Source: Sedimentisphaerales bacterium | GTDB taxonomy: Bacteria > Planctomycetota > Phycisphaerae > Sedimentisphaerales > SM23-30 | Reading direction: 5' to 3' (one strand) | Length of the DNA stretch: 64,000 nt | Assembly (NCBI GenBank): GCA_963666285.1 | Contig: OY762711.1 | In this document: piece after piece, positions 20,654 to 49,037 of the stretch | Numbering within the stretch: position 1 is the stretch's first letter | Layout of the letters: the number at the start of each line of letters is the position of its first letter | Translations under genes and position numbers: made by a program | Notes under the pieces: model-generated | What the model was told of the DNA's origin: nothing | Databases searched by the model: none | The model's input: the letters and a program-made list of their open reading frames with translations, nothing else

Positions 20654-20835
20654 GTTTACTTTTGCAGTTTTTAAGTTGCAAAAAACGCCTAAAAGGGCCT
20701 TCCTGCAACGCTTTGAATTAAATGTACTTTCGAGAATTAGCTCGGAAATACATTCAAATATAAAGTTTTTCATTCACAAGGCCCTGTTCTGGCCTTTGCG
20801 TATAATGTTGAGCAGTCAAAAGTGCGATACCGCAC
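20654..20835 (+). repeat. Interspersed palindromic repeat, copy 1 (full length)
   Basis: gtttacttttgcagtttttaagttgca...aaaagggcctt...tttcgagaattagctcgga...aaggccctgtt...cagtcaaaagtgcgataccgcac; aligns to copies at 35109 and 38023. Confidence 0.9.
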
Positions 20836-20851
20836 CTATATATAACAGAAA

Positions 20852-22561
20852 TTAAGCTTTTTCCTGTGTTACGCGTATAACTTCTTCAATACTGGTAGTA
20901 CCAAGCAGGGCGTGTCTCAGGCCGTCATCTCTCAAGGTCAGCATACCTTTTGCTACCGCGTTATCCTTAATTATGTGAGATGGGGTCTGTTTACTTATCA
21001 TTTCTCTAATATCATCATCTATTATCAGCAGTTCCGCTATTGCTATCCTGTTTCTATAGCCGGTTCCGGCACAGTCTTCACAGCCGGTTCCGGTGAAAAA
21101 AACCGGCTGGCATTTAACTGATAACGGACTTTGCTTTAACAGCTCATTTGTATTGTATTCCGTTTTACATTCTGACTTACATGTCGGACATATCGTCCTG
21201 ACAAGTCTTTGTGCCATTACACCTGATAGTGCCGATGCGATCAGATAAGGTTCTACGCCCAGATTTTCCAGCCTGAAAATAGCAGATGCTGAATCATTTG
21301 TATGCAGGGTACTTAATACCAAATGCCCGGTAAGCGATGCATGTGTCGCTATTTCCGCGGTCTCACTGTCTCGAATCTCACCTATCATAATCACATCCGG
21401 GTCCTGCCTGAGAATATGTTTCAGGCATACCGCAAATGAAAGCCCTATTTTAGGCTTTATCTGCATCTGGCCGATACCCGGCAATTCATATTCTATCGGA
21501 TCTTCTACTGTCAGTATGTTTTTCTCATTAGTATTGATCTCATTGAGAATACAATATAAAGTAGTGGTTTTACCGCTTCCGGTAGGCCCGGTAAGCAATA
21601 CCATGCCGTGAGACTGATTGGTCAGCCCCAAAAGTTGGTTTTTTATATTCGGCTCTATCCCCAGGGTGTCGATATTTACTTTTTTGGTTCCTTTTTCCAA
21701 TAATCTCAATACCAGCCTCTCGCCACCAGAGGCAGGAATCGATGATATTCGAATGTCCATATCTGTATCGCCGATCTTTACCCTGAATTGACCATCTTGC
21801 GGCAGTCTTTTTTCTGCAATATTCATGCCGGCAGTTAATTTCAGCCTGGATATTAATGGTAGTACCGTTTTATTTGTAAGAGACATATTGTCCTGCAGGA
21901 CACCGTCTATTCTAAACCTCACTTTTGCATCATTTTCATAAGGTTCTATATGAATATCGCTGGCCCGGCAATTTACAGCTCTGAATAATATCTTATTGAC
22001 AAGTTTGACTACGGGCGGCAGGTTCGCGACATTTAATATGTCTTCTCTTTGCTTGCCGACCAGGCTTGTTTCGATTTCCAGCCCGTCATTATTTTCATTT
22101 TGCTCGGGTTCGTCATTCTTTTTAGAGTCAAAATACAGCTGGCTGATTGTATTTTCCAGGTCTTCGGTTGACGCAATTGCCTTCTGGCAGTATTCACCTA
22201 TTATATTGGAGATACTATCTATCGCTTCAATGTTCAATGGATTGTCTATAACAATAAGATTACCGCCGCTTTTTAATTTTACCGGCAGAATCTTTTTGTC
22301 TTTTAGAAAACCTATAGGGACCCTGGAGATTATGTCTGTATTTATATTGCTCAACGGGATATTGTCAATAAACGGCATATTCCATTGGATTGCCAGGGCA
22401 CGGCACAGCTGCTTCCTGGTGATAAAACCTTTTTCAACCAGTAAATCACCCAGGTTAGGCTTTGGCCGCCTTGTCTGCTGAATCCTGAGGACCATATCAA
22501 GCTGGTCCATGCTCAAATCAGTCTCTTTTAGTAGAATTTGTCCTAATGATACTTCCGTCAT
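20852..22561 (-). CDS. gspE: Type II secretion ATPase GspE
   Basis: ASDIHIEP, GPTGSGKTTT Walker A, EDPIE, LRQDPD, GEIRD, TLHTN, tetracysteine motif. Confidence 0.95.
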   Translation of the reverse strand: MTEVSLGQILLKETDLSMDQLDMVLRIQQTRRPKPNLGDLLVEKGFITRKQLCRALAIQWNMPFIDNIPLSNINTDIISRVPIGFLKDKKILPVKLKSGGNLIVIDNPLNIEAIDSISNIIGEYCQKAIASTEDLENTISQLYFDSKKNDEPEQNENNDGLEIETSLVGKQREDILNVANLPPVVKLVNKILFRAVNCRASDIHIEPYENDAKVRFRIDGVLQDNMSLTNKTVLPLISRLKLTAGMNIAEKRLPQDGQFRVKIGDTDMDIRISSIPASGGERLVLRLLEKGTKKVNIDTLGIEPNIKNQLLGLTNQSHGMVLLTGPTGSGKTTTLYCILNEINTNEKNILTVEDPIEYELPGIGQMQIKPKIGLSFAVCLKHILRQDPDVIMIGEIRDSETAEIATHASLTGHLVLSTLHTNDSASAIFRLENLGVEPYLIASALSGVMAQRLVRTICPTCKSECKTEYNTNELLKQSPLSVKCQPVFFTGTGCEDCAGTGYRNRIAIAELLIIDDDIREMISKQTPSHIIKDNAVAKGMLTLRDDGLRHALLGTTSIEEVIRVTQEKA

Positions 22562-24705
22562 TATTTTATTTCTGTATTATCTCTTGTTATTGTATCTAGT
22601 TTCATCTCACTGATGCTTGCGGCATCGGCTGGTCTGCGAATTATTCTTGGAGTAATAAACAGCAGCAGATTTGTTTTCTGCTTTACTGTTTTTGTTGATT
22701 TGAATAAATCGCCAATTAAAGGTATATCGCTTATCAACGGTATTCCGTCAACTGTTTCATTTGCTTCTTCGCGTATCAGGCCGCCTATCACAATTGAAGC
22801 TCCGTCCACCATTATTATCTCTGTATTGATCTTACGTTTCGATATCGTAGGGGTTTCTGCTCCCAGCCCGGTAAGGCTGTCTTTCTGCTGGGTAAATTCA
22901 CTGTCAATTTCCAGCTGTATCAGTTCGCCCTGATTGATATGAGGTGTTATTTTCATATCGATACCAACATCTTTATAGTCGTAGCTCTTTATGACTGTCG
23001 GGTCTGTCGGGTCTGTTTCTGTTATTCTTGAATCTTTCAGGTACGGTATATTATCACCGGCCATGAAGCTTGCCTGTTTATGATTAGTTGTTGTAACGTT
23101 TGGTGATGATATTACATTGCTGGATGTCAGACGTTTCAGTGCATTCAGAACTGATCCGATCTTTGTGTCATCTCCTACATTCTTAAACGCACCCAATGCC
23201 AATCCTTCGTAATCGCCTGATATGTAGTCCAGGCGAGCGCCAAAGTTGGTAGAGCCGAAAAACCTTATACTGTCACTTACAGCTTCGTCTAAGGTTGCCC
23301 AATCGATACCAAGTTCTTCAAGGTCGCCTTCGCTAACCTCGACTATTAATAAATCAATCGATATCTGTTCCTGTACAATATCAAGCCTTTTTACAATGCT
23401 TTGTATTACATTGAAGTCCGGCATGGCAGCGGTCACTATCAGGGTATTAGTGTCAGCAAAAGGTGTTATCTTGATCGGTATTGTATCGGTACTGCCTGAT
23501 CTGGGGATATCAATCTGTGCCAGGGCATTGGCAATTGTCTCTGCTTTGGCATTAATCAGTGGAATTACATGGATATCGTTATTGTCCGCCGAATGAATGA
23601 CATCCAGCTTTTTTATCATATCGAATATTATCTGCATATCCCTGATACCTGCTATTATCATTAATGAGTTTGTTCTGGTATCAGCCTGGATTTGAACCGC
23701 ATCTGGGTTTGCCGCTCTTGCTCCGACTCCTGTAGATATGGAATCCTGTTTGTTTATCATATCTAGTATTTGTTTACTCAGCGTTGATGCTGATGCATAT
23801 CTTAGCGGTATTCTTACAAATTCTTTTTTTGACCCAGGTACGTCAATTTTACTAATGATCTGTGCAGCATTATGTATATTTGCCGAAGTGTCTGTTATTA
23901 GCAGAGTATTGCTTTTCTTGTATACATTAACGTTTGCAGTAGAACCCAGTTTTGGTTTGATCAATGAGGATATCTCAGATGCATCTGCATATTTTAACGG
24001 CATAATTTGCGTAATTATTGTATCGCTAATTGCTATCTGGTCAGGATCGCTTCCGGTATGAATCTGAATGTTATAGCTGGCAGCATCTTTTTGCGGCACT
24101 ACTTTAACGTGATTTTCTGTAGGTATCGCAGCAAAACCATGTACTTCAAGGATCGACTCTAAAAAGGGATACAGTTCTTTTACTGTAATCTCATTTGGAC
24201 ATACAACAGAAACGTTTCCTTTTACCTGCTCATCAATAATAAATGTGATACCGGTTATTTCACTGACAGTCTTTATTACTGTTTTGATATCTAAATCTTC
24301 GAAATTCAATGACAGTTTTTGATTGGCAAGTTCCTGGTTTGCTAATATTCTGTCAACAGGATTAAGTTCTTGCTTTAGATTACGTGCTGTTGCAGATGGA
24401 TTAGCCTCTTGAGCGTTTTGCGGAAGATCAAATCTTTTATCCCAGTCATAATCGTCCGTAAAGTCTGCTTCTGGCGTATATGTCGGGCTTACATATTCTG
24501 AAGCTGTATTTCGCCTATTCATTTCCAGCATCTGTTTTATGTATTCTGAAGTGCTTACGTCAAGAGATGCTGAGTTTGCAGCAAGGCTGTTACTCTTACG
24601 CGAATTCTCAACGGTATCGCTGGTTTCGTTTTTTCCGTTATTAGCTTCCTGGCATCCGCTAAGGAATATTAAAGCTATTAGCAAATATTTAAATATTCTA
24701 ACCAT
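22561..24705 (-). CDS. gspD: Type II secretion secretin GspD (lipoprotein-type signal)
   Basis: LSGC lipobox, N-domain repeats (LKYADA, ADTRTNSL), YKDVGI, IGGLI, IPLIGDLFK; TAATG overlap with gspE. Confidence 0.92.
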   Translation of the reverse strand: MVRIFKYLLIALIFLSGCQEANNGKNETSDTVENSRKSNSLAANSASLDVSTSEYIKQMLEMNRRNTASEYVSPTYTPEADFTDDYDWDKRFDLPQNAQEANPSATARNLKQELNPVDRILANQELANQKLSLNFEDLDIKTVIKTVSEITGITFIIDEQVKGNVSVVCPNEITVKELYPFLESILEVHGFAAIPTENHVKVVPQKDAASYNIQIHTGSDPDQIAISDTIITQIMPLKYADASEISSLIKPKLGSTANVNVYKKSNTLLITDTSANIHNAAQIISKIDVPGSKKEFVRIPLRYASASTLSKQILDMINKQDSISTGVGARAANPDAVQIQADTRTNSLMIIAGIRDMQIIFDMIKKLDVIHSADNNDIHVIPLINAKAETIANALAQIDIPRSGSTDTIPIKITPFADTNTLIVTAAMPDFNVIQSIVKRLDIVQEQISIDLLIVEVSEGDLEELGIDWATLDEAVSDSIRFFGSTNFGARLDYISGDYEGLALGAFKNVGDDTKIGSVLNALKRLTSSNVISSPNVTTTNHKQASFMAGDNIPYLKDSRITETDPTDPTVIKSYDYKDVGIDMKITPHINQGELIQLEIDSEFTQQKDSLTGLGAETPTISKRKINTEIIMVDGASIVIGGLIREEANETVDGIPLISDIPLIGDLFKSTKTVKQKTNLLLFITPRIIRRPADAASISEMKLDTITRDNTEIK

Positions 24706-24707
24706 TT

Positions 24708-24875
24708 GTTAACTTTCTCAGTTTTGAGTTGCAATAATTGCCAAAATGGCCTTTATGCTGTTTTTAGGTTAAATGTACTTTCGAGAAATATCTCGATTAT
24801 ATATCAAAATACTTAGGTTATTGTTTACAAGGTCCGGTATCGGTCTATGCAAATAATGTTGAACGGTCTAAGGCC
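24708..24875 (+). repeat. Interspersed palindromic repeat, copy 2 (diverged)
   Basis: gttaactttctcagttttgagttgcaataa...ttaaatgtactttcgagaaatatctcga...acaaggtcc...taatgttgaacggtc. Confidence 0.8.
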
Positions 24876-24887
24876 AAATTCTCATCA

Positions 24888-25760
24888 TTATTTTTCCTCT
24901 GTGTTATTGATGTCAGAGTCAAATTTGATTTCGTTTCCATCACGTTTGACAATAATACTCAGCTTGTTTTGCAATTTGGCTTTTTGTAATACCTGGTACG
25001 TTTTCTTTATATTCGACAGTTTTTGACCGTTAATGCTTACGATTGTATCATTAGGTTTAACGCCTAGTAATGCAATTGGACTTAAAGGTTTTATGTTTGA
25101 AATCTTCAGACCTTCATCATTACTTCCACTTGTTGACTTTTCTACTATCTCCCATTGAGCGTCCAGGTTGAGACTATCAAGTGTCTTAACCAGGTTTTCA
25201 CGAGTTTTAGGCATAGCCAATTCTAATGGTTCGCTGATTACAGTTTCTTGTATGTTTTGTGTGCTTTCAGGCTGTATTGTTTTACCGTTACCTGATTGTA
25301 TCCAGAGCTTAACTTCCTGTTTGTTGGCTGTCAGTACCACGTAATCTTTTTGTATGTCTTTTATGACAAAACCACCAAGTTTTTCACCTGTCTTCAATAT
25401 CATTGTTTTATCTTCGCCTTGAACTGATATCATTGCTCTTGCGATACTTTCCGGGCCTGTAATTGTGCCCTTAAGATATATTCCTGAGGGGAGGGTTGGC
25501 TTACTTGGTACATCCTCAATTTCTTGTACCGCGTTGTCGTTCGTATTATCGAAAAGATTTTCTAAAACGCCGTTGTCGATTTCGCCAGCGGGTATTACAT
25601 TTTCAGATAATGATGAATCTTCTGTACTTACTTCAGCATTAATTTTTTCTGTATGCGTGTTATCTAAGCTGCTTTTTTTAGGAGAAAAGATACTGACACA
25701 TATCCATACCAGGATGCCCAACAGGCAAATATTCAATATTGTTAATGATATTTTTTTCAT
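24888..25760 (-). CDS. gspC: Type II secretion GspC-like protein with PDZ domain
   Basis: N-terminal TM, LKGTITG HR domain, C-terminal PDZ (GVKPNDTIVSING); start may be GTG 25787. Confidence 0.8.
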   Translation of the reverse strand: MKKISLTILNICLLGILVWICVSIFSPKKSSLDNTHTEKINAEVSTEDSSLSENVIPAGEIDNGVLENLFDNTNDNAVQEIEDVPSKPTLPSGIYLKGTITGPESIARAMISVQGEDKTMILKTGEKLGGFVIKDIQKDYVVLTANKQEVKLWIQSGNGKTIQPESTQNIQETVISEPLELAMPKTRENLVKTLDSLNLDAQWEIVEKSTSGSNDEGLKISNIKPLSPIALLGVKPNDTIVSINGQKLSNIKKTYQVLQKAKLQNKLSIIVKRDGNEIKFDSDINNTEEK

Positions 25761-26132
25761 AATTATATTCTCAATAAGTACTTTCACACTTTTGGTGCAA
25801 TTGTATGTTCAGAATTATTATCGTCAGTTTCTAAAGGCAACTTTTGCAGATTTAACTATAATATTGCTAAAAGCACTATCTGTAAGATGCTGTTATATAA
25901 GCAGATATGTAAATATTAAGTTGTAAGCTCATTAACTTGCAAAAATAGTGGGATTTTTGATTATAGGGATGGCCGGATCGGACATACGGAAATTAGATTA
26001 TCGCCCATCTGTGACCGGATTAGCAGGGTGATAGGATTCAGCTTACAGTGATTCCTGGGAATTATTTGTCAGATTATTTGCAGTTATACTGAAATACGTA
26101 TAAGCTGCGATATTATAAGGAGTTACTAGGTT

Positions 26133-27644
26133 CTACAATTGGACGGATTCCGACATTGTAGCAACTGGAGCCGACTTGCCGGTAAACAATTCAAATTGCT
26201 TAACTGCCTGGTTAATAAACATGTCCAAGCCGGAAATTGGCATTGCCCCCGACTCTACTGTATATTTTAAGAGTTTGGTTTCTAGCGGGGCATAGACAGT
26301 GTCAAAAACTGTCATATTGGATTTTATGGTAGTTTTGTTCACAGGGCAGGTTTCAATTTCAGGCTCCATACCAAGAGATGTACAGTTTATTATCAATTCG
26401 GCAGACGTAGAGTCTATTTCGTCTGAATTGGCATAATTGCAGCCGAAGGTTTCTGCTAAATGCTTTGCTTTTTCTATGGTCCTATTATAGATTGTTACAT
26501 CTGCTTTATTATCTACAAGCGCAGATACTATTGCACGCGAAACGCCGCCGGCGCCGATAACAGCTGCAGGCATTCCTTCAAGTGATTTTCCTGATTTGCT
26601 TAATCCATCCAAAATAGCTTTCAGAGCACCGTGGTAATCGGTATTATATCCTCGGAGTTCATGGTCACCGGTTATTATTATCGTATTGATTGCACCTATT
26701 TTTCTTGCCGGCGGATCAATGAAACCGTTGTTATTATCAAGATAGTTCATCGCGTTTTGTTTATGCGGCAGGGTAACACTAAAACCGCTAAATAACAGCC
26801 ATGGACGCTTCAGGCACTCATCCATAAACAAATCAAACTCGTCTGCCTGGATAAGCAGAGGCATATACATGCCGTTAAATGATGACTCTTCAAATGCACG
26901 ATTATGAATTATTGGCCCTCTGGAATGGCATACCGGGGCACCTATTATCCCAAAAAGACGGGTGTCTGAATTTGTTTTATCAAATCGGTAAACTTTTTTG
27001 ATTTCTGTTAGATTAATCTGACCGTCTGCTGTTGAATCTTCATTACTCAGCGATGCAAATGTCAGCAGGGCGTTGAGCTTTTTTGCTAATAACCGGGTAA
27101 TTATCCCTTCATAACCCATTGCAATTGCTATCATTCCAGGATTGTCACGCATAATGTCAAGTGCGGCAAATGAGTCAGCAATACTGTTAGCCTTAAATGC
27201 AATCTTAGGTATTGCATCCGACGAAAGATTCTTAATGCTGTTAATTATGTCAACAAGGTCTATTGGCTTTTCTTCAAAATTATGGTGGCTGATTATTACC
27301 TGGGCCGGACCGAATTCAGGCAGAAATTCTGCTACTGCTTTTAATTCAATATCAATATAATCGGCCCTGGCGGAAGCTGCTTTTTGCAGTATCTTGATTC
27401 TGTTTTTATCTGGTCCATCGTATTCGCCGCCTTCCCAGTTTGCTCGGCATGTAGCAATGACTTTCATGCCGTATTCACGGGCGATAGTAACAATATCAAC
27501 AACTTTTTCTTCTAACCGGATTTGGTCCGGCCAGTAATCAAGTCGCAGTTCGATAATATCGGCACCTTTGTCTTTTGCAGCCTGGGCTTGTGTTTTTAAT
27601 TTCTCTATTGATTCTACTTTTATTGGTATAGCAATGTATGTCAT
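26133..27644 (-). CDS. aroE: Bifunctional type I 3-dehydroquinate dehydratase / shikimate dehydrogenase
   Basis: DIIELRLD, ATCR..EGG, ISHHNF, AMG (AroD); HSRGP, SVTLPHK, GAINT, NTD, GAGG, NRT (AroE). Confidence 0.92.
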   Translation of the reverse strand: MTYIAIPIKVESIEKLKTQAQAAKDKGADIIELRLDYWPDQIRLEEKVVDIVTIAREYGMKVIATCRANWEGGEYDGPDKNRIKILQKAASARADYIDIELKAVAEFLPEFGPAQVIISHHNFEEKPIDLVDIINSIKNLSSDAIPKIAFKANSIADSFAALDIMRDNPGMIAIAMGYEGIITRLLAKKLNALLTFASLSNEDSTADGQINLTEIKKVYRFDKTNSDTRLFGIIGAPVCHSRGPIIHNRAFEESSFNGMYMPLLIQADEFDLFMDECLKRPWLLFSGFSVTLPHKQNAMNYLDNNNGFIDPPARKIGAINTIIITGDHELRGYNTDYHGALKAILDGLSKSGKSLEGMPAAVIGAGGVSRAIVSALVDNKADVTIYNRTIEKAKHLAETFGCNYANSDEIDSTSAELIINCTSLGMEPEIETCPVNKTTIKSNMTVFDTVYAPLETKLLKYTVESGAMPISGLDMFINQAVKQFELFTGKSAPVATMSESVQL

Positions 27645-27669
27645 TTTTCTGTCACTGGTTTTTATAATA

Positions 27670-28566
27670 TTATTTCTGTTTTTTTATAGTCTCTGCGGCT
27701 TCAATTCCTATTTCAACTGCATTTTCAAGCTTACCGCAAATTTCCGCATATGCTATATTTTTGCCGTTTACATCGCCAGAAAATGCTTTTATATGCAGCT
27801 TTGTATTTTCTACCCAGCTGTAAGCACCCATTGGGACCTGGCATCCTCCACCCATCGATGCAAGAAATGATCGCTCAGCATCAGTAGTAAGTTTTGATTC
27901 TTGATCTTCCAATGGTTTCAGTAATTTGGCGGTTTCCGGATCATTTGCTCTTATCTCAATCGCAAGTGCACCCTGACCGCAGGCTGGTAAAAAGACTTTG
28001 GGGTCCAGTTTGTGTGATACCAGGTTGTCCAGTCCCAGCCGCGCTAGTCCTGCGCTGGCAAGTATCATTCCGTCAATCTCGTCATTCTGCAGGTATTTTT
28101 TTATCCTGGTTTCTATATTTCCTCGAACATCTGATATCTGCAAATCTGGTCTTGCGTGTAGCAGCTGACATTTGCGTCTTAGAGAACTGGTAAAAATTTT
28201 TGCTTTTTTCGGTAAATTTTGTATTTCACAGCCGCTTTTACTAAAAAAGGATTCTGAAGAATCTTCTCTGCTGGTAATTGCGCCATATGTCAATCCTTCC
28301 GGCAGATCGGTTGGCAGATCCTTTAAGCTATGGACGGCCAAATCTATTTCTCCGGCAATCAGATTATCTTCTATCTCTTTAGTAAATAAGCCCTTACCGT
28401 CGATTTTACTCAATGCCTGGTCTAATATCTTGTCACCCTTGGTTTTGATTATTTTTATATGTAATTCGATATCGGGGTGTAGGTTTCTAAACAGTTTTTC
28501 TATATGCCTGGTTTGCCATAATGCCAGATTGCTGCCGCGTGTCCCAATTGTCAGTACTTTCGCCAT
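27670..28566 (-). CDS. hemC: Hydroxymethylbilane synthase
   Basis: GTRGSNLALWQ, KGLFTKE, AVHSLKD, TSSLRR, RGN, GGCQVP. Confidence 0.96.
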   Translation of the reverse strand: MAKVLTIGTRGSNLALWQTRHIEKLFRNLHPDIELHIKIIKTKGDKILDQALSKIDGKGLFTKEIEDNLIAGEIDLAVHSLKDLPTDLPEGLTYGAITSREDSSESFFSKSGCEIQNLPKKAKIFTSSLRRKCQLLHARPDLQISDVRGNIETRIKKYLQNDEIDGMILASAGLARLGLDNLVSHKLDPKVFLPACGQGALAIEIRANDPETAKLLKPLEDQESKLTTDAERSFLASMGGGCQVPMGAYSWVENTKLHIKAFSGDVNGKNIAYAEICGKLENAVEIGIEAAETIKKQK

Positions 28567-28676
28567 TTGTCCTCTTAAATAATAATTAAAAACAAATTTT
28601 AATAGCTAAATACAGCAATGTCAATTACATATGAAATGAATTTATTAGAAAGGAGTCGGAGTTCTGGAAAGATATG

Positions 28677-29069
28677 TCAAATTGTGCAGGGGTAGTCCTT
28701 TTTGACATATTTCATTTTCCAGTTGTCGCTTTCAATACTGCTTAGTATGATTTCTCCGTGCAGTGTCTCACTCTTGAGAACTAACTCGACTTCATCAAAA
28801 GGCAGGCAGGACATAAGTTTGCCTTTAGGGTCAAAATATTGACCTCTTATAACGATTCTCACAAAACCGCGATTCTCAGAAATCGGTCCTTCGTATGTCA
28901 AATACTTAAGCCTGTGGTCAAATATCTTTTTACAGTTAATCTCGCTTTCTGACCACTCAGTAGGGTGAGTTTCTATTTGCCAGGTAAGCAGAATCTCCCC
29001 ACATCGAACCATTAAATCCCAATGAGTATGATCATCGATAGTATGCTCTTGTACGACAAAATCATTCAT
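28677..29069 (-). CDS. Stand-alone LigD 3'-phosphoesterase-like protein
   Basis: FVVQEH, HWDL, DHRLKYLTYEG motifs. Confidence 0.75.
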   Translation of the reverse strand: MNDFVVQEHTIDDHTHWDLMVRCGEILLTWQIETHPTEWSESEINCKKIFDHRLKYLTYEGPISENRGFVRIVIRGQYFDPKGKLMSCLPFDEVELVLKSETLHGEIILSSIESDNWKMKYVKKDYPCTI

Positions 29070-29274
29070 CAATTGAATTATATCTTTCTGTTTTATGTTT
29101 GTCCATAAAACTTAAACTTATAAATTGAGATTTTAATGCCGACTGTAACAGTTGTATGGCTTTACTGCAAACACTAATGCATATGCTGCCTGCTGTGCAT
29201 AATGTGTTGTCTCGTAGATGTTTATGTTGATTTGGCAGTAGTTTGGCCTTGCTTTGTTGTGGCTCAGAATTTGA

Positions 29275-29303
29275 TTGAAATCGTACTCAATAAATGATAC
29301 AAT
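29275..29303 (+). promoter_or_regulatory. Sigma70-type promoter of lepA
   Basis: TTGAAA-17 bp-TACAAT with TGn extension. Confidence 0.55.
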
Positions 29304-29407
29304 TAATGTTCTATATATATTCTGTTATATGGAGTTATATAGAGCTAAACAAAACACCACACCAACACACCCCGGTTTCAAGACTAGGCAGGAACTACAA
29401 AAAATAT

Positions 29408-31207: not shown

Positions 31208-31208
31208 G

Positions 31209-33776: not shown

Positions 33777-33782
33777 ATCTAT

Positions 33783-40230: not shown

Positions 40231-40249
40231 ATTTATCTTATCTTTAATT

Positions 40250-40336: not shown

Positions 40337-41301
40337 TACTTCTTCCTTTGCGAATATTTTTCTACTAAATCTATTATCTTGGGCTGATCCGGATCTAATT
40401 CTAGGGATTTATGCCAGTAGCTAACCGCCTCACGTGCAAGATCCTGTTCTTTTTCTTCACTATTGATGAATTGCATCATTCTTACAACCCCCATTCCATT
40501 ATAAGCATCCAGGTTATCTTTCTCTAAATCCAAAATACTCTTGTAAAAATCATATGCCTCTGATAATTGCTGGTTTGACAGGTGGCAGTAAGCGATAGAT
40601 ACCCTCGCTTTTACACTCTCCGGGTGTATCTTTATTGCTTTATTCAATATATACAATGCAGGCTCATATCTTTGCATATTTGTATATGCCAGGCCAAGCC
40701 CTATCATGGCATTCAGGTCATATGTATCTATTTCTAGCGATCTTTTATACTCTGTGATCGCTTTTTCATAGTCTCCGCTTTTGCTGTAAATATCTGCCAG
40801 CCCGGCCATATATTCAGAATTATTCGGATCGATCTCAATCGCTGCCCGGCAAAATTCTTCTGCCTTACCATAGTCATCTACTTTATAATAGCAAACGCCT
40901 AACCTGTAATTGACTTCACTACTCATCGGTTTCAGTTTATGGGCCTGGCTAAGAGTAGTTATTGCGTCTTTGAATCTTTCTAATACCTGGTAAACTTTTC
41001 CAAGCTTGAGATGTGCTGTGAATCCCCATGGATTAATTCGGCATGTCTTTTCATAGGATTTTGCCGCGTTTTCGTATTCACCGTTTTCTGCATATATGTC
41101 GCCCATCATTGAATGAGCCAGCGAAAACTCACTGTCTAGTTTTACTGCCTCTTTTAGTGCATATAAGGCATTTTGATCAAAATCGGTATTCTTCAGTGAC
41201 ATTGCTGTAACATAATACTCAACTGCTTTCTCATGTTTCCAGTTGCATCCTCCAATAATAATCAACGCTAATATTAAAAGTGATAATATGTGTCTATGCA
41301 T
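40336..41301 (-). CDS. Tetratricopeptide-repeat lipoprotein
   Basis: IGGC lipobox; multiple TPR-like repeats. Confidence 0.85.
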   Translation of the reverse strand: MHRHILSLLILALIIIGGCNWKHEKAVEYYVTAMSLKNTDFDQNALYALKEAVKLDSEFSLAHSMMGDIYAENGEYENAAKSYEKTCRINPWGFTAHLKLGKVYQVLERFKDAITTLSQAHKLKPMSSEVNYRLGVCYYKVDDYGKAEEFCRAAIEIDPNNSEYMAGLADIYSKSGDYEKAITEYKRSLEIDTYDLNAMIGLGLAYTNMQRYEPALYILNKAIKIHPESVKARVSIAYCHLSNQQLSEAYDFYKSILDLEKDNLDAYNGMGVVRMMQFINSEEKEQDLAREAVSYWHKSLELDPDQPKIIDLVEKYSQRKK

Positions 41302-41375
41302 AGTTTTGTATCCGTTTAATATTTATATATCATTTAATGTGTTTTCAATATCATACCATATCAAAGGTATAGATG

Positions 41376-42122
41376 TTAATTCCTTTTCCAGCCTTCATCT
41401 GCCGGCATTTTCCATGAATTTTCAGTACTTAGCATTTTCTTTTGCAGTAATATACTCATTATTACGCAGAATAATAGCAATGCGGGTAAATTCATTGGCA
41501 TATCTATCAGGTATTGTTTCATCATAGAAGCGAATGGGGTTTGATTCTTCAATATTGCCATTAACCCTATGATAAGCATTGAGCAGCCCTGTACAGAAGT
41601 AAACATCATTACCGTATACTTAAATGAAGAAAAGGCCAAAAACGCTCCTGCTACCATTCCCGCCAGTCCGCCGGCCAGTATCAAATTGTCCATTCCCATA
41701 AAACCTTTCCATAGTGCCGCTCCTATGGCTGCCCCGGCCATTCCTCCCAGGATTGCCACGCAGTATTTCATGAAAGGGTATGTCATTGATACGCAGAATA
41801 TCGCTCCCAATACTCCGCATAATAATATTATATTAGGCTGATTTGACTGGCTGCCCGCATATCTGCCCAGGTATAATCCTAAATACAAAAAGTTCAATGC
41901 CACTAGCAGCCGGAATAGTCGCCATCCGTACAATATGAAAATTGCCGCGATTGTAATAGCACCTAAAGCCTGTATCGATGATACAGAGTCCAGCTTTACC
42001 CAGAGTTCATTAAAATCTGACAATCTTTGCAGGCTTGACGAAAAGTTCTGTGACGTTTCGCCTTCTTCAGCTCCATTTGCCACTTGTGCCAGCAAAGTAA
42101 AATCTAATCCAGTGAAATTCAT
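41376..42122 (-). CDS. Polytopic membrane protein (DUF4203-like)
   Basis: LYGWRLFR motif, Gly-rich TMs. Confidence 0.65.
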   Translation of the reverse strand: MNFTGLDFTLLAQVANGAEEGETSQNFSSSLQRLSDFNELWVKLDSVSSIQALGAITIAAIFILYGWRLFRLLVALNFLYLGLYLGRYAGSQSNQPNIILLCGVLGAIFCVSMTYPFMKYCVAILGGMAGAAIGAALWKGFMGMDNLILAGGLAGMVAGAFLAFSSFKYTVMMFTSVQGCSMLIIGLMAILKNQTPFASMMKQYLIDMPMNLPALLLFCVIMSILLQKKMLSTENSWKMPADEGWKRN

Positions 42123-42137
42123 TTTTGCTGCTCCTTA

Positions 42138-43016
42138 CTATACATTTTCAGAGCTCTCCTTCTTTTGTTTCGATTGTTTCATTCCGCCTGTCATCAACTG
42201 GAATAACCAGCCAAAGGCTACCATTGCTCCGAATACTATTGTCAATACTTTATGGTGGTTTTGTAAATTCGACCAGACTGGCGTTCCTTTTGCTATTATA
42301 GCCAGCATAAGGCCGGTTATCATTGCTGATGAGCCTACTACGCTGCAGCAAAAGCCCATTACTATCAATTTTAGTAATTTTGCCAGGACCAGGCCGATAA
42401 TTCCTCCAACTACGCACCACATAATCAAATAGCCGGCATTTTTACTTACTGTTGGCTTTAATTCATTATATATCTCTTGTAATTTCTGGCCAAATGAGTT
42501 GGCATATTTTCCGGCTTTCAATGCTGTCTGACTGGCTTTATTTAGTTCATCCAGGCGGCTGCCTTCCCCAAAAGGACTTCCGGAGCCAAATAGACCGGTT
42601 CCGTTTGAAGATGCATCTTCATCATACAAGCCGGTCTGGGAACTTTCATCAGATACCCTGGTCAGACCATGTTTGCCGATTGTGTAATCTAAATATCCTG
42701 TTCCAAAAGCAAATGAAAATATCATTATTGCCAATATGAATATTATTACCTGCTGTGCTAGCATCGCAATAAACGCACAAAGGGTTGCTGATATACAAAT
42801 CGTAGCAGCAGGGTGGACATCTATATATGACGATATCATAAAACCGATTGCTGTTCCAATACATGCACCGATAAAGCCGGTTACGGCTTTAAGGTATCTC
42901 AATCCGCCAATCCACAGAAATAAACCGAGGATCATCAGTGTTACACCGGTCAATACCACCGGCGCGGTATTGGCTTCCAGGCATGCCTGTTCTATTTTTA
43001 ATAATTGCTCGTTCAA
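42138..43016 (-). CDS. Polytopic membrane protein (DUF4203-like), probable paralog of neighbour
   Basis: GLFLWIGGLRYLK motif, SVVGS..I.GL segment matching SVQG...IIGL of neighbour. Confidence 0.65.
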   Translation of the reverse strand: MNEQLLKIEQACLEANTAPVVLTGVTLMILGLFLWIGGLRYLKAVTGFIGACIGTAIGFMISSYIDVHPAATICISATLCAFIAMLAQQVIIFILAIMIFSFAFGTGYLDYTIGKHGLTRVSDESSQTGLYDEDASSNGTGLFGSGSPFGEGSRLDELNKASQTALKAGKYANSFGQKLQEIYNELKPTVSKNAGYLIMWCVVGGIIGLVLAKLLKLIVMGFCCSVVGSSAMITGLMLAIIAKGTPVWSNLQNHHKVLTIVFGAMVAFGWLFQLMTGGMKQSKQKKESSENV

Positions 43017-43387
43017 ATCTTACCTATTTTAGCTACTGTTTCTATCTTTACAGATTTTGACCCAATTCATTATATAATATCGGCTTACAGCATAAAATGT
43101 CACCATAATATTAGGTTTTTTTCTCCATTTTAGTCGGCTCTATTACGCTTTTATTGCATTTGCGATTATTTATCAAGACTAATTTATTAATGAAGAATTA
43201 CTATGCCATTGATAACAACAAAAATATGTTCAAAGAAGTCTATGGCAGTTGTTCAAATAGCTCAGAATCTATGATAATGCTAGCAAAACAATTCGGGAGA
43301 CATTACGTCATCTTTCCCCAACTGACTATTTTATATATAGTTACCTCGCTGTGAATTATAAACCTGTTTCCGTTCGCTAGTTTAGTT

Positions 43388-43415
43388 TTGCATTAATATT
43401 CTTTTCGGGTATAAT
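43388..43415 (+). promoter_or_regulatory. Sigma70-type promoter of fbaA
   Basis: TTGCAT-16 bp-TATAAT. Confidence 0.5.
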
Positions 43416-43468
43416 ACCCCAAGTTTGTATTTAATTAGTTTTATTAACTTAACTTATAGAGGCAAAAT

Positions 43469-44530
43469 ATGAGTATCCTAGATATTGTAAAACCAGGCGT
43501 TGTTTCTGGTGAAGACGTGCAAAAAGTTTTCGCTTATGCGAAAGAAAATGGTTTTGCACTTCCTGCGGTTAATTGTGTTGGAACAGACTCTTGTAATGCT
43601 GTAATGGAAGCTGGAGCAAAGGCTAAAGCTCCTGTTATCATTCAGTTTTCTAATGGTGGTGCCAACTTCGTTGCAGGTAAAACTTGCGATAACGGTAAAG
43701 TTCTTGGCGCTATCTCTGGTGCTATTCACGTTCACACTGTTGCTGAAGCTTATGGCATCCCTGTAATCTTGCACACAGACCATGCTGCTAAAAAGCTTCT
43801 GCCCTGGATTGATGCACTGTTAGATGAAGGCGAAAAGTATTTCGCTGAAACTGGCAAACCACTATTCTCTTCTCATATGCTTGACCTTTCAGAAGAAACT
43901 CTGGAAGAAAACATTGAAATCAGCTGCAAATATCTTGAGCGTATGGCCAAGATCGGTATGACTCTTGAAATCGAGCTGGGCTGTACTGGTGGCGAAGAAG
44001 ATGGTGTAGATAACTCTGATATGGATGAATCTAAGCTTTACACTCAGCCTGCTGACGTTGCTTACGCTTACGAAAAAATGATCAAAATCAGCCCTAATTT
44101 CACAATTGCGGCTTCTTTTGGTAATGTTCACGGTGTTTACAAGCCAGGTAATGTTAAACTTACTCCAACTATCCTGCGTGATTCCCAGACTGAAGTTTCT
44201 AAGAAGTTCGGCCTTGGCGATAACCCGCTGGACTTCGTATTCCATGGCGGTTCTGGTTCAACTCAGGCAGAGATCAAAGAAGCTATCTCTTACGGCGTTA
44301 TCAAAATGAATATCGATACAGATACCCAGTGGGCAACCTGGAAGGGTGTTCTTGATTTCTATAATGAAAATAAAGATTATCTTCAAGGTCAGCTTGGCAA
44401 TCCTGAAGGTGCCGATAAGCCTAACAAGAAGTTCTACGACCCACGCGTATGGCTTCGTAAAGGTCAGGAAAGCATGGTTGCTCGCATTGTAGAAGCATGC
44501 GATAGCCTTAACGCTACCGGCAAACTATAA
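43469..44530 (+). CDS. fbaA: Class II fructose-bisphosphate aldolase (type A)
   Basis: FALPAVN, HTDH, SSHMLDLS, GGEEDG, GNVHGVY, FHGGSG, KMNIDTD, YDPR. Confidence 0.97.
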   Translation: MSILDIVKPGVVSGEDVQKVFAYAKENGFALPAVNCVGTDSCNAVMEAGAKAKAPVIIQFSNGGANFVAGKTCDNGKVLGAISGAIHVHTVAEAYGIPVILHTDHAAKKLLPWIDALLDEGEKYFAETGKPLFSSHMLDLSEETLEENIEISCKYLERMAKIGMTLEIELGCTGGEEDGVDNSDMDESKLYTQPADVAYAYEKMIKISPNFTIAASFGNVHGVYKPGNVKLTPTILRDSQTEVSKKFGLGDNPLDFVFHGGSGSTQAEIKEAISYGVIKMNIDTDTQWATWKGVLDFYNENKDYLQGQLGNPEGADKPNKKFYDPRVWLRKGQESMVARIVEACDSLNATGKL

Positions 44531-44552
44531 TTGATAGTTTATCGAAAAAATT

Positions 44553-44585
44553 AAAAGCCATGCCATTCCGATGGCGTGGCTTTTT
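44553..44585 (+). terminator. Intrinsic terminator of fbaA
   Basis: gccatgccat-tccg-atggcgtggc-T5. Confidence 0.85.
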
Positions 44586-44591
44586 CTTTAA

Positions 44592-44615
44592 GTAGCACAA
44601 GCGTCCCCGCTTGTG
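44592..44615 (+). repeat. GTAG-type REP-like element
   Basis: GTAG immediately followed by cacaagcg-tccc-cgcttgtg palindrome. Confidence 0.65.
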
Positions 44616-44746
44616 AATTATTTATCTTCGGCGCAGCCGAAACCTTAAAGAGTCTTTTAGGGCGAAATATGTGGTTTGAAATTTTTAAAATAACGTCGCG
44701 CAGCGACACCTCAAGTAATTGTTGTTAACTCCAAAAAGGTGTTCGT

Positions 44747-45877
44747 ATGAAAAAATATTACCTGATTATTCTTGCTATCTTGGTATCCTCTACCTATATC
44801 TCTGCCCAAACTACCTCTATCACCAGCTACGAACTATTTCTCGACACCGACGGCAACCACATAAACGCCCATGGAGCAGGGGTGCTGTATCATGACGGTG
44901 TTTATTATCTATATGGCGAATACAAAAAGAGATGGGCCAGCGCTCTCGGCGTCAGTTGTTATTCATCCGGCGATCTCTATAACTGGCAGTTCAAAGGCTT
45001 GGCCCTAACAAACATCGACCGACCCGGCCACGATATCCAACCCGGAGCCGTTATCGAACGCCCCAAGGTCATCTACAATGCCAAAACCGGCAAATTCGTC
45101 ATGTGGTTTCATCTGGAACTGCGAGGCAAGGGGTACGAAGCTGCCCGTACCGCTGTTGCCGTTAGTGACTCTCCGGAAGGACCATTCGAGTATATCCGCT
45201 CTCTACGGCCCAATCCTGCCATATGGCCCATGAACTATTCCCAACAGCTTTACAACGCCTACAGGGAAAAATCGAACGGTTCAGATAAAGGTTTTTTCAA
45301 CCCCGGCACAGTCGGCGACTTCCTCGCACGCGACCTCGATTCCGGCCAGATGGCACGTGATATGACCCTTTTTGTGGATGATGATGGCAAAGCCTACCAT
45401 ATCCACGCTTCCGAAGAAAACCAGACTCTCCATATTTGTGAGCTTACCGACGATTATCTCGACTTCTCCGGTCGCTACACCCGCGTTCTGCCCGGCCAGA
45501 GCAACGAAGCCCCGGCAATATGCAAATTCAAAGGCATGTATTACATGATCTCCTCAGGCTGTACCGGTTGGGCACCCAACCAGGCTCGTTCTGCTGTCGC
45601 TCCTACTATCTGGGGACCCTGGACCTATACCGGCAACCCCTGCCAGGGCACCAACCCGCACAATAACTTGGGGCCGGACAAAACCTACGGCGGTCAAAGC
45701 ACATACCTTCTCCCAGTACAGGGCAAAGACAATGCCTTCATCGCTATGTTCGATGTGTGGCGGCCACACAACCAGCAGGACAGCCGCTATCTCTGGCTCC
45801 CCGCCCGCATCAAAGACGGCAAGCTCATCGTCCGCTGGCAATCCAGCTGGAACCTCTCATTTTTCGATCAGCAGTAA
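44747..45877 (+). CDS. Glycoside hydrolase family 43 protein (secreted)
   Basis: Signal peptide, INAHGAG, YYLYGE, IERPKV, RDMTLFVDDDG, EAPA, SGCTGW, QST. Confidence 0.88.
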   Translation: MKKYYLIILAILVSSTYISAQTTSITSYELFLDTDGNHINAHGAGVLYHDGVYYLYGEYKKRWASALGVSCYSSGDLYNWQFKGLALTNIDRPGHDIQPGAVIERPKVIYNAKTGKFVMWFHLELRGKGYEAARTAVAVSDSPEGPFEYIRSLRPNPAIWPMNYSQQLYNAYREKSNGSDKGFFNPGTVGDFLARDLDSGQMARDMTLFVDDDGKAYHIHASEENQTLHICELTDDYLDFSGRYTRVLPGQSNEAPAICKFKGMYYMISSGCTGWAPNQARSAVAPTIWGPWTYTGNPCQGTNPHNNLGPDKTYGGQSTYLLPVQGKDNAFIAMFDVWRPHNQQDSRYLWLPARIKDGKLIVRWQSSWNLSFFDQQ

Positions 45878-45952
45878 TGCAATAGTGTTGCATAAATAAT
45901 GAAAACAAACCATTTATCAGTTTGAGCAGTATAACTATGCTTATCAAGTCAT

Positions 45953-46600
45953 TTAGTATGAGCTGCAAATCTTCTGCATATGCATTTTTAGCGTCTCGAT
46001 TTCTGTAAAGATCATATCAGGCATAGACTCCTGCAGCTCTGATATATTTGCGGTACTGCTCCACGCGGCTGACCAGATTGCTATTCCCGCATCCCTGGCA
46101 GATTTTATATCACTTGCCGTATCTCCTATATATACTGCTTCTTCAGGCATAAGATTATACTTGGCAAGAACTGCTTGTATCCCTTCAACCTTTCTGGGGC
46201 CTTTAATCCAGCCAGTTTCCACCATATCAAACATATCACTTATGCCGTAAATCTCCAGTGTTATTCTGGCACTCTTATGCCCTTTACCCGTCACCAGTGC
46301 CGCAATCAACTCGCTTGACCTCAAATATTCAAGCAGCTCTACTATCCCGTCAAAAGGGGACATACTCATGCTGTGCAGTTCCTGGTAGTATTTCAAATAA
46401 TCTTTTACTCCTTGTTCATAATGGTCTGGTATCAGCTGTTGGATCGTTCCCTCTTCGCTTGGACCGAATGTTGCAATTATCTCATTGTCTGACAGCTTCT
46501 TGCCTGCCAGTGGTTCGATTGACTTCTTGAATGCTTCTATACATAGCGGCAGTGTGTCACCTAATGTGCCGTCCAGGTCAAAAATTACTGCTTTTATCAT
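45953..46600 (-). CDS. HAD-family hydrolase (phosphoglycolate phosphatase-like)
   Basis: FDLDGTL, VTGK, YIGDTASD. Confidence 0.9.
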   Translation of the reverse strand: MIKAVIFDLDGTLGDTLPLCIEAFKKSIEPLAGKKLSDNEIIATFGPSEEGTIQQLIPDHYEQGVKDYLKYYQELHSMSMSPFDGIVELLEYLRSSELIAALVTGKGHKSARITLEIYGISDMFDMVETGWIKGPRKVEGIQAVLAKYNLMPEEAVYIGDTASDIKSARDAGIAIWSAAWSSTANISELQESMPDMIFTEIETLKMHMQKICSSY

Positions 46601-46649
46601 CTACTTTATCTTTCTTTATTTCCTTTTGCTTTTTCTATTCTTAGTTACT

Positions 46650-46790
46650 GTTTACTTTCGCACTTTTAAAGTTGCAATAATGAAATGCCTCTGGTAAATC
46701 GCCTAAAAGGGTCTTCCTGCAACGCTTTGAATTTTAAAAAATGTGAGACGAAAGTCGAACACCTTAAATTTTCACTATTCATTTTTCATT
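46650..46790 (+). repeat. Interspersed palindromic repeat, copy 7 (left arm fused to hairpin-ACACC tail)
   Basis: gtttactttcgcacttttaaagttgcaataa...ctggtaaatcgcctaaaagggtcttcctgcaacgctttgaatt, then gtgagacgaaagtcgaacaccttaaattttcac. Confidence 0.85.
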
Positions 46791-48699
46791 TCGCGATGCT
46801 TGCCACTTCCTCATCGCTTCTCGCTTCTAACTTTTCTATCTCTTTACGTATCTCCGGAAAGATAATATTCTCTACCATAGTATAAATAATATTCGCTAAA
46901 GCTCCGGCAACAACACCATCCGTCTCTAAATGAAACATGCCGCCGTCCGCCAGCCAGCAAATATCAGCCGGCATATTTTTGTACAAATGTGAAAAATCAA
47001 ATTCTTCCGAATTATCCTTATTCAACCTGGAGGTAATGTCTTTTTTCAATTCATATGGTAAATATTTATTTAATGCCGTATTCAATGTTGCCCATAAGGT
47101 TTCGGAATCAAGATAATGCATATAATATATATTTTCAGGAAGATCTTTCGTTGCCCTAACAAACTTCGGACTTGACAGTATAGACTTCGATATGTCCTGA
47201 GATTGCCATAAGCTGATCATTTCAACTGCTGCCTGTTCGGATGTTGACAAAACAATGTTATTAGCATCAAGAGCAAAAATTGAAGGCTTAATAATATCAG
47301 ATAAAACCGGATATGAAAAAGAATAAAGATCAACCCCGTTACAATCTTTTACAGAAAGATCGACCCTTTCTTTATCCTTAACTTGAGCATTCAGTGCCTG
47401 AATAAACAACCCGGAATCATTGACTCCCAAAATACAAGTGATATTATTATTTCGTAGATTAACCGCATCATCCGCCTTAACAGTAACAAGCATAGCCCAG
47501 GTCAGATTGTTAAATATCCCCTCTAAAAAATCATCACCAACCAATTCTTTGATATTGGCAGCCAAACGCTGCATCTCCTGTGGAGTAATTTCTCCAAACT
47601 TAACAGATGAATTCATTAAAGTGATAAAACTTGTTTTATAATCATAGTTAAATGCTGCCATACCAGTCACATCTGCCGGAATTACAGAAAGCAGCTTACG
47701 GTTAAGTTTTGTTACTTTCTTAAATCTGGGGAAAAAGTTTGAATCAATATTAAAAAATTCTGTTTCGTATAAAAATGCATCTTTTTCTAATTTTACATCA
47801 TAGGCATCTATTACAGTTTGCCTGTCTTTGAAGCTGAATCTGTAATAAGATTTTCCTGATTGCTCCCGAGGCGTCAAGTTGCGATATTTTATAATTTCAT
47901 TTGGCAGCTGATAGCTGTTATTCTTGAACTGGTTTACAACAAATTCGTTGTTTTGCATAAATATAATGTCATCTCCTTGAAAACAATTGCTCTTGAAGCA
48001 TTCAATAGTTTCAGAACGAGACGAGATCGATTTCGCCATAGCTACCAGGCTTTGCTCTACTATATTATCCAAAGTGGCTATCGCAATTATGTATTTGTCA
48101 ATAACACATAAACACAATACCGGACGATGCCGATAAACCATTATATCTCCGGTCAATATTATAACGTTTCCATATTCAGGATATTTAACCACCTCAATAG
48201 CGGTTTTATTGTTTGCGAAGGTATTAAATTCTTTTAATACTTTAATATATTCATTCAGCTTTGCCTGATCTCCCGGGGTAATATAATATACGTAACTATT
48301 TGCACTCTCAATATCACGTGAAGAACTATCAACAACAAGACCAAACAATGAAGGATCTTGCAGCAATTTAAGATCGATAATCTTATCTCGAATCTCTTTA
48401 TATTCGGAAGTTTGCCGATAGTGTTTACTTATTATACTTTCCGGATGTATTGCTTGACTTAGCAGAGACTTAATATATTCATCTTCAAACACATCGTGCA
48501 AAATTGTTTTGTCATAATCATCTGACAAATTATCAGTTCCGCTGCTGGCAATATAAAAAAGGGAATCGTCGGGAGCAAGTGCCGCCAGCTCTTTAGCCAA
48601 AGAACGCGAATCCGGAGATTTAAAAGAGAGGTCAAACTGCATCGCTATCGCGACAGCAACAGTCAAGAAGGTAATAAACCCAAACAACTTCAATTTCAT
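46786..48699 (-). CDS. Hypothetical exported protein (possibly DUF3352-like)
   Basis: Long ORF, signal-like N terminus, LAPDDSLFYI and IPADV repeat-start motifs; family call tentative. Confidence 0.7.
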   Translation of the reverse strand: MKLKLFGFITFLTVAVAIAMQFDLSFKSPDSRSLAKELAALAPDDSLFYIASSGTDNLSDDYDKTILHDVFEDEYIKSLLSQAIHPESIISKHYRQTSEYKEIRDKIIDLKLLQDPSLFGLVVDSSSRDIESANSYVYYITPGDQAKLNEYIKVLKEFNTFANNKTAIEVVKYPEYGNVIILTGDIMVYRHRPVLCLCVIDKYIIAIATLDNIVEQSLVAMAKSISSRSETIECFKSNCFQGDDIIFMQNNEFVVNQFKNNSYQLPNEIIKYRNLTPREQSGKSYYRFSFKDRQTVIDAYDVKLEKDAFLYETEFFNIDSNFFPRFKKVTKLNRKLLSVIPADVTGMAAFNYDYKTSFITLMNSSVKFGEITPQEMQRLAANIKELVGDDFLEGIFNNLTWAMLVTVKADDAVNLRNNNITCILGVNDSGLFIQALNAQVKDKERVDLSVKDCNGVDLYSFSYPVLSDIIKPSIFALDANNIVLSTSEQAAVEMISLWQSQDISKSILSSPKFVRATKDLPENIYYMHYLDSETLWATLNTALNKYLPYELKKDITSRLNKDNSEEFDFSHLYKNMPADICWLADGGMFHLETDGVVAGALANIIYTMVENIIFPEIRKEIEKLEARSDEEVASIAK

Positions 48700-48865
48700 A
48701 ATAGATAATCCTTTATCTAAGTTATTCAAAGTGACCGATTTTACACTTTTTATTGCTGTAACACAATTTTATGCAAATTGTTACATTAATGATTTAATTA
48801 GCTTGCCGCTTTGCGACAAACCTTACCTAATACCTCTCAAACTGGCCATCGGTCAGTTTGAGTAA

Positions 48866-49037
48866 GTTAATTTTCTCAGTTTTTGAATTGCAATAACGAA
48901 TTGCCTTTTGATAATTCGTCTAAAAGGGCCTTTTTGCAACACTTTAAATTTAAACGAAACGTGAGATGCGATGTTGAGCAAAGCGAAATCCCGATGAACA
49001 TCGGCAAACACCTTAATTTTTCACTTTTCTATTCATT
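48866..49037 (+). repeat. Interspersed palindromic repeat, copy 8 (left arm fused to hairpin-ACACC tail)
   Basis: gttaattttctcagtttttgaattgcaataacgaa...tctaaaagggcctttttgcaac, then gtgaga...aaacaccttaatttttcac; same subtype as copy 7. Confidence 0.8.

Follow-up and report, generated by a model that had tools for sequence, protein, structure and literature searches.

What sets the direction of a repeat that faces the same way each time it occurs? The question is raised by a 64,000-nucleotide stretch of DNA from a Sedimentisphaerales bacterium (GenBank assembly GCA_963666285.1, contig OY762711.1), hereafter the window, which corresponds to C1:2464001-2528000 on C1, the 6.15-Mb contig of the host genome (G000), and carries eight copies of a short repeat, all on the plus strand. 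The repeat is very probably a miniature inverted-repeat transposable element (MITE) with 5-bp target duplications and ends of the IS701 type of insertion sequence (IS). Its orientation is locked to local zones of purine skew; these zones are not inversions, and the architecture from origin to terminus (oriC-ter) is normal beneath them. The zones extend to one side of a conserved non-coding element, E2, which is likely to mark start points of one-way DNA copying, separate from normal replication. The MITE itself is of an ordinary kind, and the novel part lies in the zone-locked orientation and the one-sided zones.

A preliminary description, made from the letters of the window, had placed eight co-oriented copies here and distinguished full, internally deleted, left-only and right-only forms; the copy boundaries bear this out, and the left end GTT(T/A)A(C/T)T that it reported is present in all seven copies that possess a left end. 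The copies are as follows.

20654..20835, plus strand: full short form with the exact 5-bp duplication CTATA/CTATA; it sits in the gspE-gspF gap of a type II secretion cluster.
24708..24886, plus strand: nearly full copy with a decayed right end (profile match to 24871), and with 2 bp between its left end and the start codon of gspD.
35109..35330, plus strand: full long form with an extended right-end hairpin.
37039..37133, plus strand: right part only (model positions 129-224), given as 37057 in the preliminary description.
38023..38204, plus strand: full short form with the 6-bp duplication CTTATA.
40250..40336, plus strand: both ends with the middle deleted, and a duplication with one mismatch.
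46650..46791, plus strand: left part (to about 46733), then an inserted hairpin and pyrimidine-tract module.
48866..49037, plus strand: left part, then an inserted hairpin/heptamer module.

The element measures about 180-240 bp and is multicopy, profile counting across C1 and three 65-kb contigs (C2-C4) giving 218 hits at 215 loci, all of them on C1; C2-C4 hold neither the MITE nor E2. It is non-coding, as a called open reading frame is overlapped by more than half in only 11 of 198 hits. The preliminary description saw no consistent target-site duplication, and this has to be revised. Among 119 copies with both ends callable, drawn from 239 left-end matches, an exact 5-bp duplication was found in 54 (shuffle mean 1.8, maximum 8) and one with at most one mismatch in 85 (shuffle mean 12.1, maximum 22), with the target consensus T-W-W-W-A, while lengths of 3 and 4 bp gave no excess over shuffles in the same copies. 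The terminal inverted repeats, GTTTACTTTCGCAGTTTT and the reverse end GTGCGG(T/A)(T/A)TCGCACTTTT, agree in GT and in the inner TCGCA-TTTT and differ at positions 3-6; the long form carries an insertion in the right end. Three copies at distant sites are 100% identical, each with its own duplication, and one further identical pair behaves likewise, so the movement is recent. Local hopping was considered and rejected: the median distance between nearest-neighbour copies is 1.41 Mb (1.50 Mb over all pairs), and identity shows no trend with distance. Nearest neighbours less than 100 kb apart numbered 11 of 119, against 4.3 expected. The spectrum of private substitutions held too few events for reading. 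The syntenic gap between gspE and gspF in two congeners, G001 and G003, is without the MITE, although the gap sequences do not align.

The whole-length palindromic rod drawn in the preliminary description stands in part. In the copy at 20654 the middle and central stems form in the predicted fold; the outer arms fold locally, and the match of the copy to its own reverse complement (119 of 182 positions) falls within the range of shuffles (105 ± 7, maximum 122), which makes the full rod an overstatement. Folding z scores were -3.3/-4.7 for the copy at 20654 and -3.2/-3.7 for that at 38023, and only about -1 for that at 35109. Double changes were seen in none of nine outer pairs and once in eight middle pairs (105-119 copies); in the same test the central stem was badly aligned across copies. 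The alignment-level fold is nearly nil, and an Rfam scan of the window gave no match at the gathering score.

A candidate partner resides in the same genome. It is a 1427-bp IS at C1:67161-68587 with the ends GTAAACTTTCGCACTTTT, present on C1 as seven identical copies, one copy of 89% identity and one fragment, and all seven identical copies are flanked by exact 5-bp duplications. Its transposase of 430 aa includes YADRWAIEDTFKNTK, which contains Y, R, E and K, a complete YREK motif. The protein matches the NCBIfam IS701 model NF049999 with 286.5 bits (cut-off 170) and also PF13546. Relatives of this transposase occur mostly in Sedimentisphaerales records; both such ends were found at 19 of 32 of their loci, with an exact 5-bp duplication at 6 of the 19. 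According to De Palmenaer et al. 2008 (PMC2266710), the IS701 family spans 1400-1550 bp with the end pattern ---YACT-Y--YR, from which the IS end departs by one mismatch (position 4) and which the MITE left end fits fully. The same source gives a duplication of typically 4 bp and a YREK motif that is usually incomplete, with the tyrosine in 4 of 27 members; since the partner has 5 bp in 7/7 copies and, unlike the family norm, a complete motif, it belongs to a 5-bp IS701-like clade (NF049999). The match between MITE and IS is limited to about 20-26 terminal bases: the left end of the MITE resembles the IS701 left end, and the right end retains the terminal GT and the inner motif, its positions 3-6 having changed into a hairpin. 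This hairpin is kept in G003 and, through the double change GTACG..CGTAC, in a subfamily comprising 5 of 78 short copies; one G003 copy of the MITE begins with the exact IS end. Judged from these ends, the MITE is likely to be moved in trans by a resident or related transposase of the IS701 family. In this it resembles other bacterial MITEs moved in trans by an IS, being short and non-coding with inverted repeats, a fixed AT-rich duplication and a 1427-bp partner, and it differs from them in having a hairpin variant as its right end and an orientation locked to local zones.

Across C1 the strands are used about evenly (113 plus, 102 minus). Neighbouring loci lie on the same strand in 55/55 cases at less than 5 kb and in 114/120 at less than 20 kb, whereas permutation within replichores gave a mean of 62.7 and a maximum of 85 for the latter. 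Co-orientation is far beyond chance, and the reading as a non-autonomous mobile element of strand-biased orientation is upheld. Lagging-strand targeting, which the preliminary description offered, fails as the main cause, because the GTTTAC strand of the MITE is the leading strand at only 132 of 215 loci. The direction of flanking genes was rejected as a cause as well, the MITE matching the local gene majority at 100 of 198 loci.

What does predict the strand is local composition. When C1 was segmented on fourfold-site composition, without MITE data, it fell into 73 segments with a median length of 65 kb. Their two states are set apart by a purine component (G>C with A>T), and the MITE lies on the strand expected from the state in 194 of 218 hits; taken alone, local purine skew gives the right strand for 197 of the 218. 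With P as the continuous local purine skew at fourfold sites, the MITE follows P in 93/93 cases at |P|>=0.2, 68/72 at 0.1-0.2, 23/27 at 0.05-0.1 and 16/26 below 0.05, and in this last class GTTTAC lies on the leading strand in 21/26; adding a replichore term to the skew model gave p=1.5e-4. Among the youngest copies, 7 of 8 at |P|>=0.1 already obey the zone rule, and 13 of 14 are leading-oriented. Other repeats behave similarly. Of 341 high-copy 14-mers (at least 20 copies, MITE masked), 274 were zone-polarised and 89 replichore-polarised, although these are not independent families because many words overlap, and within 3 kb the MITE and the nearest marker of another repeat agree in 50/50 cases. 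Skew profiles around the MITE itself are symmetric.

Several further families show polarity of their own. An intergenic repeat with the word ATCAAAAGCAATTT occurs at 40 sites on C1 (e.g. 57437 and 795519), 40/40 on the leading strand and 40/40 on the purine-rich strand of the zone, and is therefore present only where zone and fork agree. Zone polarity is shared by copies of IS3a (8/9), IS110a (8/9) and IS110b (4/4), the IS3 and IS110 copies clustering in module arrays beside E2. Genes for the four-helix-bundle family PF05635 lie on the purine-rich strand in 8 of 10 cases on C1, as assigned by the segmentation.

The zone that holds the eight copies, and the elements at its border, are listed here.

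10802..52479 (C1:2474802-2516479), no strand: zone with a pyrimidine-rich plus strand at fourfold sites, from the segmentation, with local values of -0.13 to -0.28 at the copies.
49290..49629, minus strand: array on the 3' side of E2 that consists of short hairpin and heptamer-repeat modules; its strand polarity holds genome-wide.
49630..50140, minus strand: E2, a conserved non-coding element of about 500 bp, G-rich on the minus strand and a candidate marker of the zone start.
52386..52997, no strand: support interval for the zone boundary, a sharp upward jump in skew some 2.3-2.9 kb 5' of E2.

All eight MITEs of the window sit 1.3-29.5 kb 3' of this E2. On C1 there are 31 copies of E2 (19 codirectional with the fork), most of their core columns are conserved, and hairpin and heptamer module arrays adjoin them on the 3' side. 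At 28/31 copies of E2 the 3' flank has a higher skew than the 5' flank, with a difference of 0.163 (random control 0 ± 0.028, maximum 0.089), and this one-sidedness is found at fork-codirectional and head-on copies alike, with gene direction unchanged. The zone skew rises within a few kb of E2 and fades over about 50 kb, on one side only: GC skew amounts to 0.25 within the first 10 kb 3' of E2 and to about 0.05 past 30 kb. The forward strand shifts in composition 3' of E2, in genes of both directions: T drops from 0.345 to about 0.24, G goes up from 0.177 to about 0.26 and A from 0.305 to 0.35. MITE direction follows the same geometry, with 37/38 MITEs up to 40 kb 3' of E2 pointing as E2 does, against 15/30 over the same distance 5' of it. 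E2 words ranked top among 4529 tested (z about 7); E2 first drew attention among polarised words and near jumps, which entails some selection, and all 31 copies were scored. A near-consensus sigma-70 promoter match (11/12) lies at 49142-49170 of the window on the minus strand, pointing into the zone.

A second G-rich family, E3, has eight copies with phased GGCGG-type repeats and behaves like E2.

E3, C1 248660/252419, 1125988/1129501, 4649314/4652669, 342542 and 590143: outward-facing pairs around sharp skew jumps, comprising 6 of 8 copies.

Outside this genome, the E2 motif had no match in genome and metagenome contig collections and one probable chance match in viral contigs; in 150 other genomes just short module-level matches appeared, in 9 of the 150 (four candidates scored per genome), and an Rfam search around E2 returned two chance-level matches only. 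The GxxExxY family was not found, and PF13814 was unmatched in the genome in a search whose control likewise gave no match.

The MITE occurs in all three congeners searched and in none of 17 other relatives. In G003, where the comparison of zones, orthologues and MITE covers 800 kb, the zones are stronger than in G000 and 7/7 MITE hits fit the rule; at five further MITE loci of G003, three fit and two are near neutral. A different motif, unrelated-looking when set against E2, is found at two jumps in G003 and has more copies. This candidate start motif is built of ATGTACAT repeats with an 11-bp phase, and arrays of heptamers and hairpins come after it (G003:C1 2881568, 1617022, 1928130, 2270166 and others). 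At seven previously unexamined copies, the skew in the 6-kb flanks was higher downstream than upstream in 7/7. In another genome, G019, neither the MITE nor E2 nor clear zones were found in 800 kb of 3.9 Mb.

We tentatively favour, at a little short of an even chance, a reading in which MITE orientation follows the skew zones beside E2 through one-way DNA synthesis, with a transposase inserting at fixed polarity on a primer-template. E2 or E3, or a site 1-3 kb 5' of them, would start DNA synthesis, and a new strand, the purine-rich one, would grow away from E2 with enough errors to leave a skew. Oxidised dGTP is prone to misinsertion and A is placed opposite lesions; changes from T to G and from T to A on the new strand would fit both. 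The GTTTAC strand of the MITE would be the template strand of the primer-template junction, and one rule would then cover both regimes: the leading-sense strand at oriC forks, which is the template of Okazaki fragments, and the pyrimidine-rich strand in the zones. With the pyrimidine-rich strand as template, the purine-rich strand would be the new strand leaving E2, and the leading-strand preference where zone skew is weak would also be explained. The IS701-type transposase might capture the primer-template with fixed polarity by analogy with clamp-linked targeting (PMC3971601). We hold more loosely, as a possible but doubtful extension, that a second programme of one-way DNA synthesis starts from dozens of sequence-marked sites (E2, E3 and the congener motif) atop oriC replication, leaves wakes of 50-100 kb and orients most small repeats.

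A number of results pull the other way. No enzyme or mechanism was observed, and the synthesis is read from a compositional wake and from insertion polarity. The skew jump usually lies 1-3 kb 5' of E2 and not inside it; a jump of at least 0.2 within 5 kb accompanies only 13/31 E2 copies (random, 47/400), and E2 and E3 together correlate with the skew map at r=0.46, a partial explanation. VirB4 and three relaxase families (PF03135, PF03432 and PF08751; other MOB families lay outside the search) were not found in the genome. E2 was not found in G003 or G001, the downstream skew at the G003 motif is negative at one copy and near zero at two, and in G001 the zones are weak, with one of four MITE loci fitting, two unclear and one leaning contrary. 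Zone-concordant lagging-strand copies number zero among the 14 youngest MITEs. With regard to the mover, the IS701 copies are leading-directed in 7/9 cases and 3/4 at |P|>=0.1 contradict the zone rule, a result compatible with selection after insertion or with another mover; the transposase is unmatched in G001-G003, though all three hold the MITE; no parent with internal homology to the MITE was found; and its right end departs from the IS end at positions 3-6. Finally, no empty site or skipping joint appeared in four sequencing runs, although two of the runs span the stretch, and these may come from the source sample itself. As a separate observation, all nine IS701 copies lie in zones where zone and fork agree; of the 14 youngest MITEs, 12 are in zones of the other type.

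An explanation that we regard as unlikely is that insertion is random or fork-biased and that wrong-way copies are later lost, the right-end hairpin with its T run, an outward promoter-like left end or the pairing of inverted neighbours in single-stranded DNA being harmful. The disregard of the autonomous IS701 for the zone rule, the retention of the right-end hairpin in the subfamily double change and in G003, and the leading orientation of nearly all the youngest copies would all fit such a loss. However, 7 of the 8 youngest copies in clear zones already obey the rule, the promoter-like pattern survives in only 39/119 left ends, gene starts are no nearer to the left end (63 versus 71 of 197), and selection against a head-on promoter predicts the reverse bias in weak zones. 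A directional process would, moreover, still be required to define the zones.

That process could be long-range transcription or R-loops from E2, rather than DNA synthesis, biasing mutation and target capture over tens of kb, which we judge improbable. The G-rich forward strand of E2 carries promoter- and terminator-like matches, and its reverse strand a hairpin and a boxA-like word, the consensus having been compared with 16S leaders. But the boxA-like word points away from the zone, and gene direction 3' of E2 is unbiased (0.53), so that about half of the genes would be read antisense. Ordinary genes have a pyrimidine-rich signature on the coding strand, opposite in sign to that of the zones, and covariation within E2 is only scattered.

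It is also quite improbable, in our estimate, that the zones are real and E2 and E3 are passengers, gathered in a hot spot 1-3 kb downstream of some unrecognised site of initiation or breakage. The concentration of change points at -1 to -3 kb from E2, the skew of 0.135 already present in the 2.5 kb 5' of it, the accumulation of IS3, IS110 and modules beside it and the unrelated look of the G003 motif are in favour of such a site. Yet the 29 jumps share no motif or gene type beyond the repeats and have no excess of DnaA boxes (6 versus 5.5 expected), and the 31 copies of E2 are conserved along about 500 bp. Words resembling parS numbered 6 at the 29 jumps versus 1.6 expected, counted double as palindromes, with 4 of them at the origin.

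We consider it very improbable that replichore polarity was strict at insertion and that blocks were later scrambled by inversions or by misassembly at repeats. The genome is IS-rich, about a quarter of orthologues changed polarity between G000 and G003, and E2 is not bridged by short-read contigs. Inversion is nevertheless largely refuted by the intact polarity of genes, orthologues and FtsK-orienting polar sequences (KOPS). Around leading- versus lagging-oriented MITEs, the leading-gene share is 0.615 versus 0.621 and KOPS counts are 99/13 versus 97/8; in the two zone types, 104/141 and 68/91 genes keep their polarity relative to G003 (p=1), the zone state of these orthologues being mixed. 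Group II introns on C1 lie on the leading strand in 10/10 cases, an independent sign of normal oriC forks. Neither zone state is the mirror image of the other, the skew weakens with distance, and it jumps up more sharply than it drops (increment skewness +0.57). The last candidates, a single-stranded element mobilised by an HUH enzyme of the IS200/IS605 kind or a structured RNA co-oriented with transcription, both raised in the preliminary description, are scarcely credible: some copies do fold better than shuffles, the right-end hairpin is conserved and the genome holds five Y1 transposase matches, but the terminal inverted repeats and the 5-bp duplications, both of which HUH elements (IS200/IS605 or REP/RAYT) lack, the ends in common with an IS701-type DDE element, the near-absence of covariation, the absence of an Rfam match, and the lack of a link to gene direction all stand against them.

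The preferred reading, one-way synthesis beside E2, has relatives among known systems. Sequence-defined one-way origins include oriT and transfer from high-frequency-of-recombination (Hfr) strains, RNA-primed origins of the ColE1 type, phage run-off replication and oriK sites. E2 resembles these in being a short cis element (a few hundred bp) that acts to one side, its effect weakening with distance; it differs in that E2 and E3 make up about 40 dispersed chromosomal copies in both orientations, that the motif varies between congeners, and that neither VirB4, a tested relaxase nor a match to a known RNA family was found. Mosaics of hairpins and short tandem repeats like the repetitive extragenic palindromes and bacterial interspersed mosaic elements (REP/BIME) are also familiar, including beside four-helix-bundle genes. 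The arrays here share with them shuffled hairpin and 7-mer modules that are polarised by local skew and not by genes, whereas in this genome the polarity leads back to one-sided start markers and also takes in a DDE-type MITE and the composition of fourfold sites. Clamp-linked targeting by Tn7 involves TnsE. Replication-polarised insertion more widely (IS200/IS605, IS607, ISL3, IS110, IS91 and clamp-linked Tn7; PMC3971601) is alike in that polarity is set by DNA synthesis, and the MITE has a weak replichore bias in common with it, as seen in its weak zones; the main compass of the MITE differs, being many local one-sided zones and not the oriC fork. PMC3971601 places IS701 among families with orientation bias in few or no chromosomes, and takes local GC skew as a proxy for fork direction. 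In genomes such as the present one that proxy can be poor. An abstract-level literature search, outside which most subscription papers lie, found neither such zones nor this MITE described.

Asymmetry between the strands of a bacterial chromosome is usually taken to reflect two replichores, and patches of skew to reflect rearrangement. In this genome KOPS, genes and group II introns track oriC-ter, while fourfold purine skew and most high-copy repeats track local zones. If DNA synthesis is the cause, this would be a bacterial chromosome with many sequence-marked secondary start sites, offering a clonable element and mapped positions.

Some smaller observations concern the MITE and its surroundings. 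A module-like word occurs in one sense at 52 of 218 MITE loci genome-wide and in the other sense at none, and modules appear to insert into the MITE with fixed orientation. At 15134-25787 and 57154-62781 the window holds the type II secretion cluster (gspC, D, E and F), which is broken twice by the MITE, and a PilM-type gene. At 8 of 197 loci, including 24705-24708 in the window, 2-3 bp separate the left end of the MITE from a called start codon, and in such positions the MITE may supply or displace translation signals. Elsewhere on C1, two related, inverted prophage-like regions of 88-94% identity lie at 966-995 kb and 2114-2143 kb.

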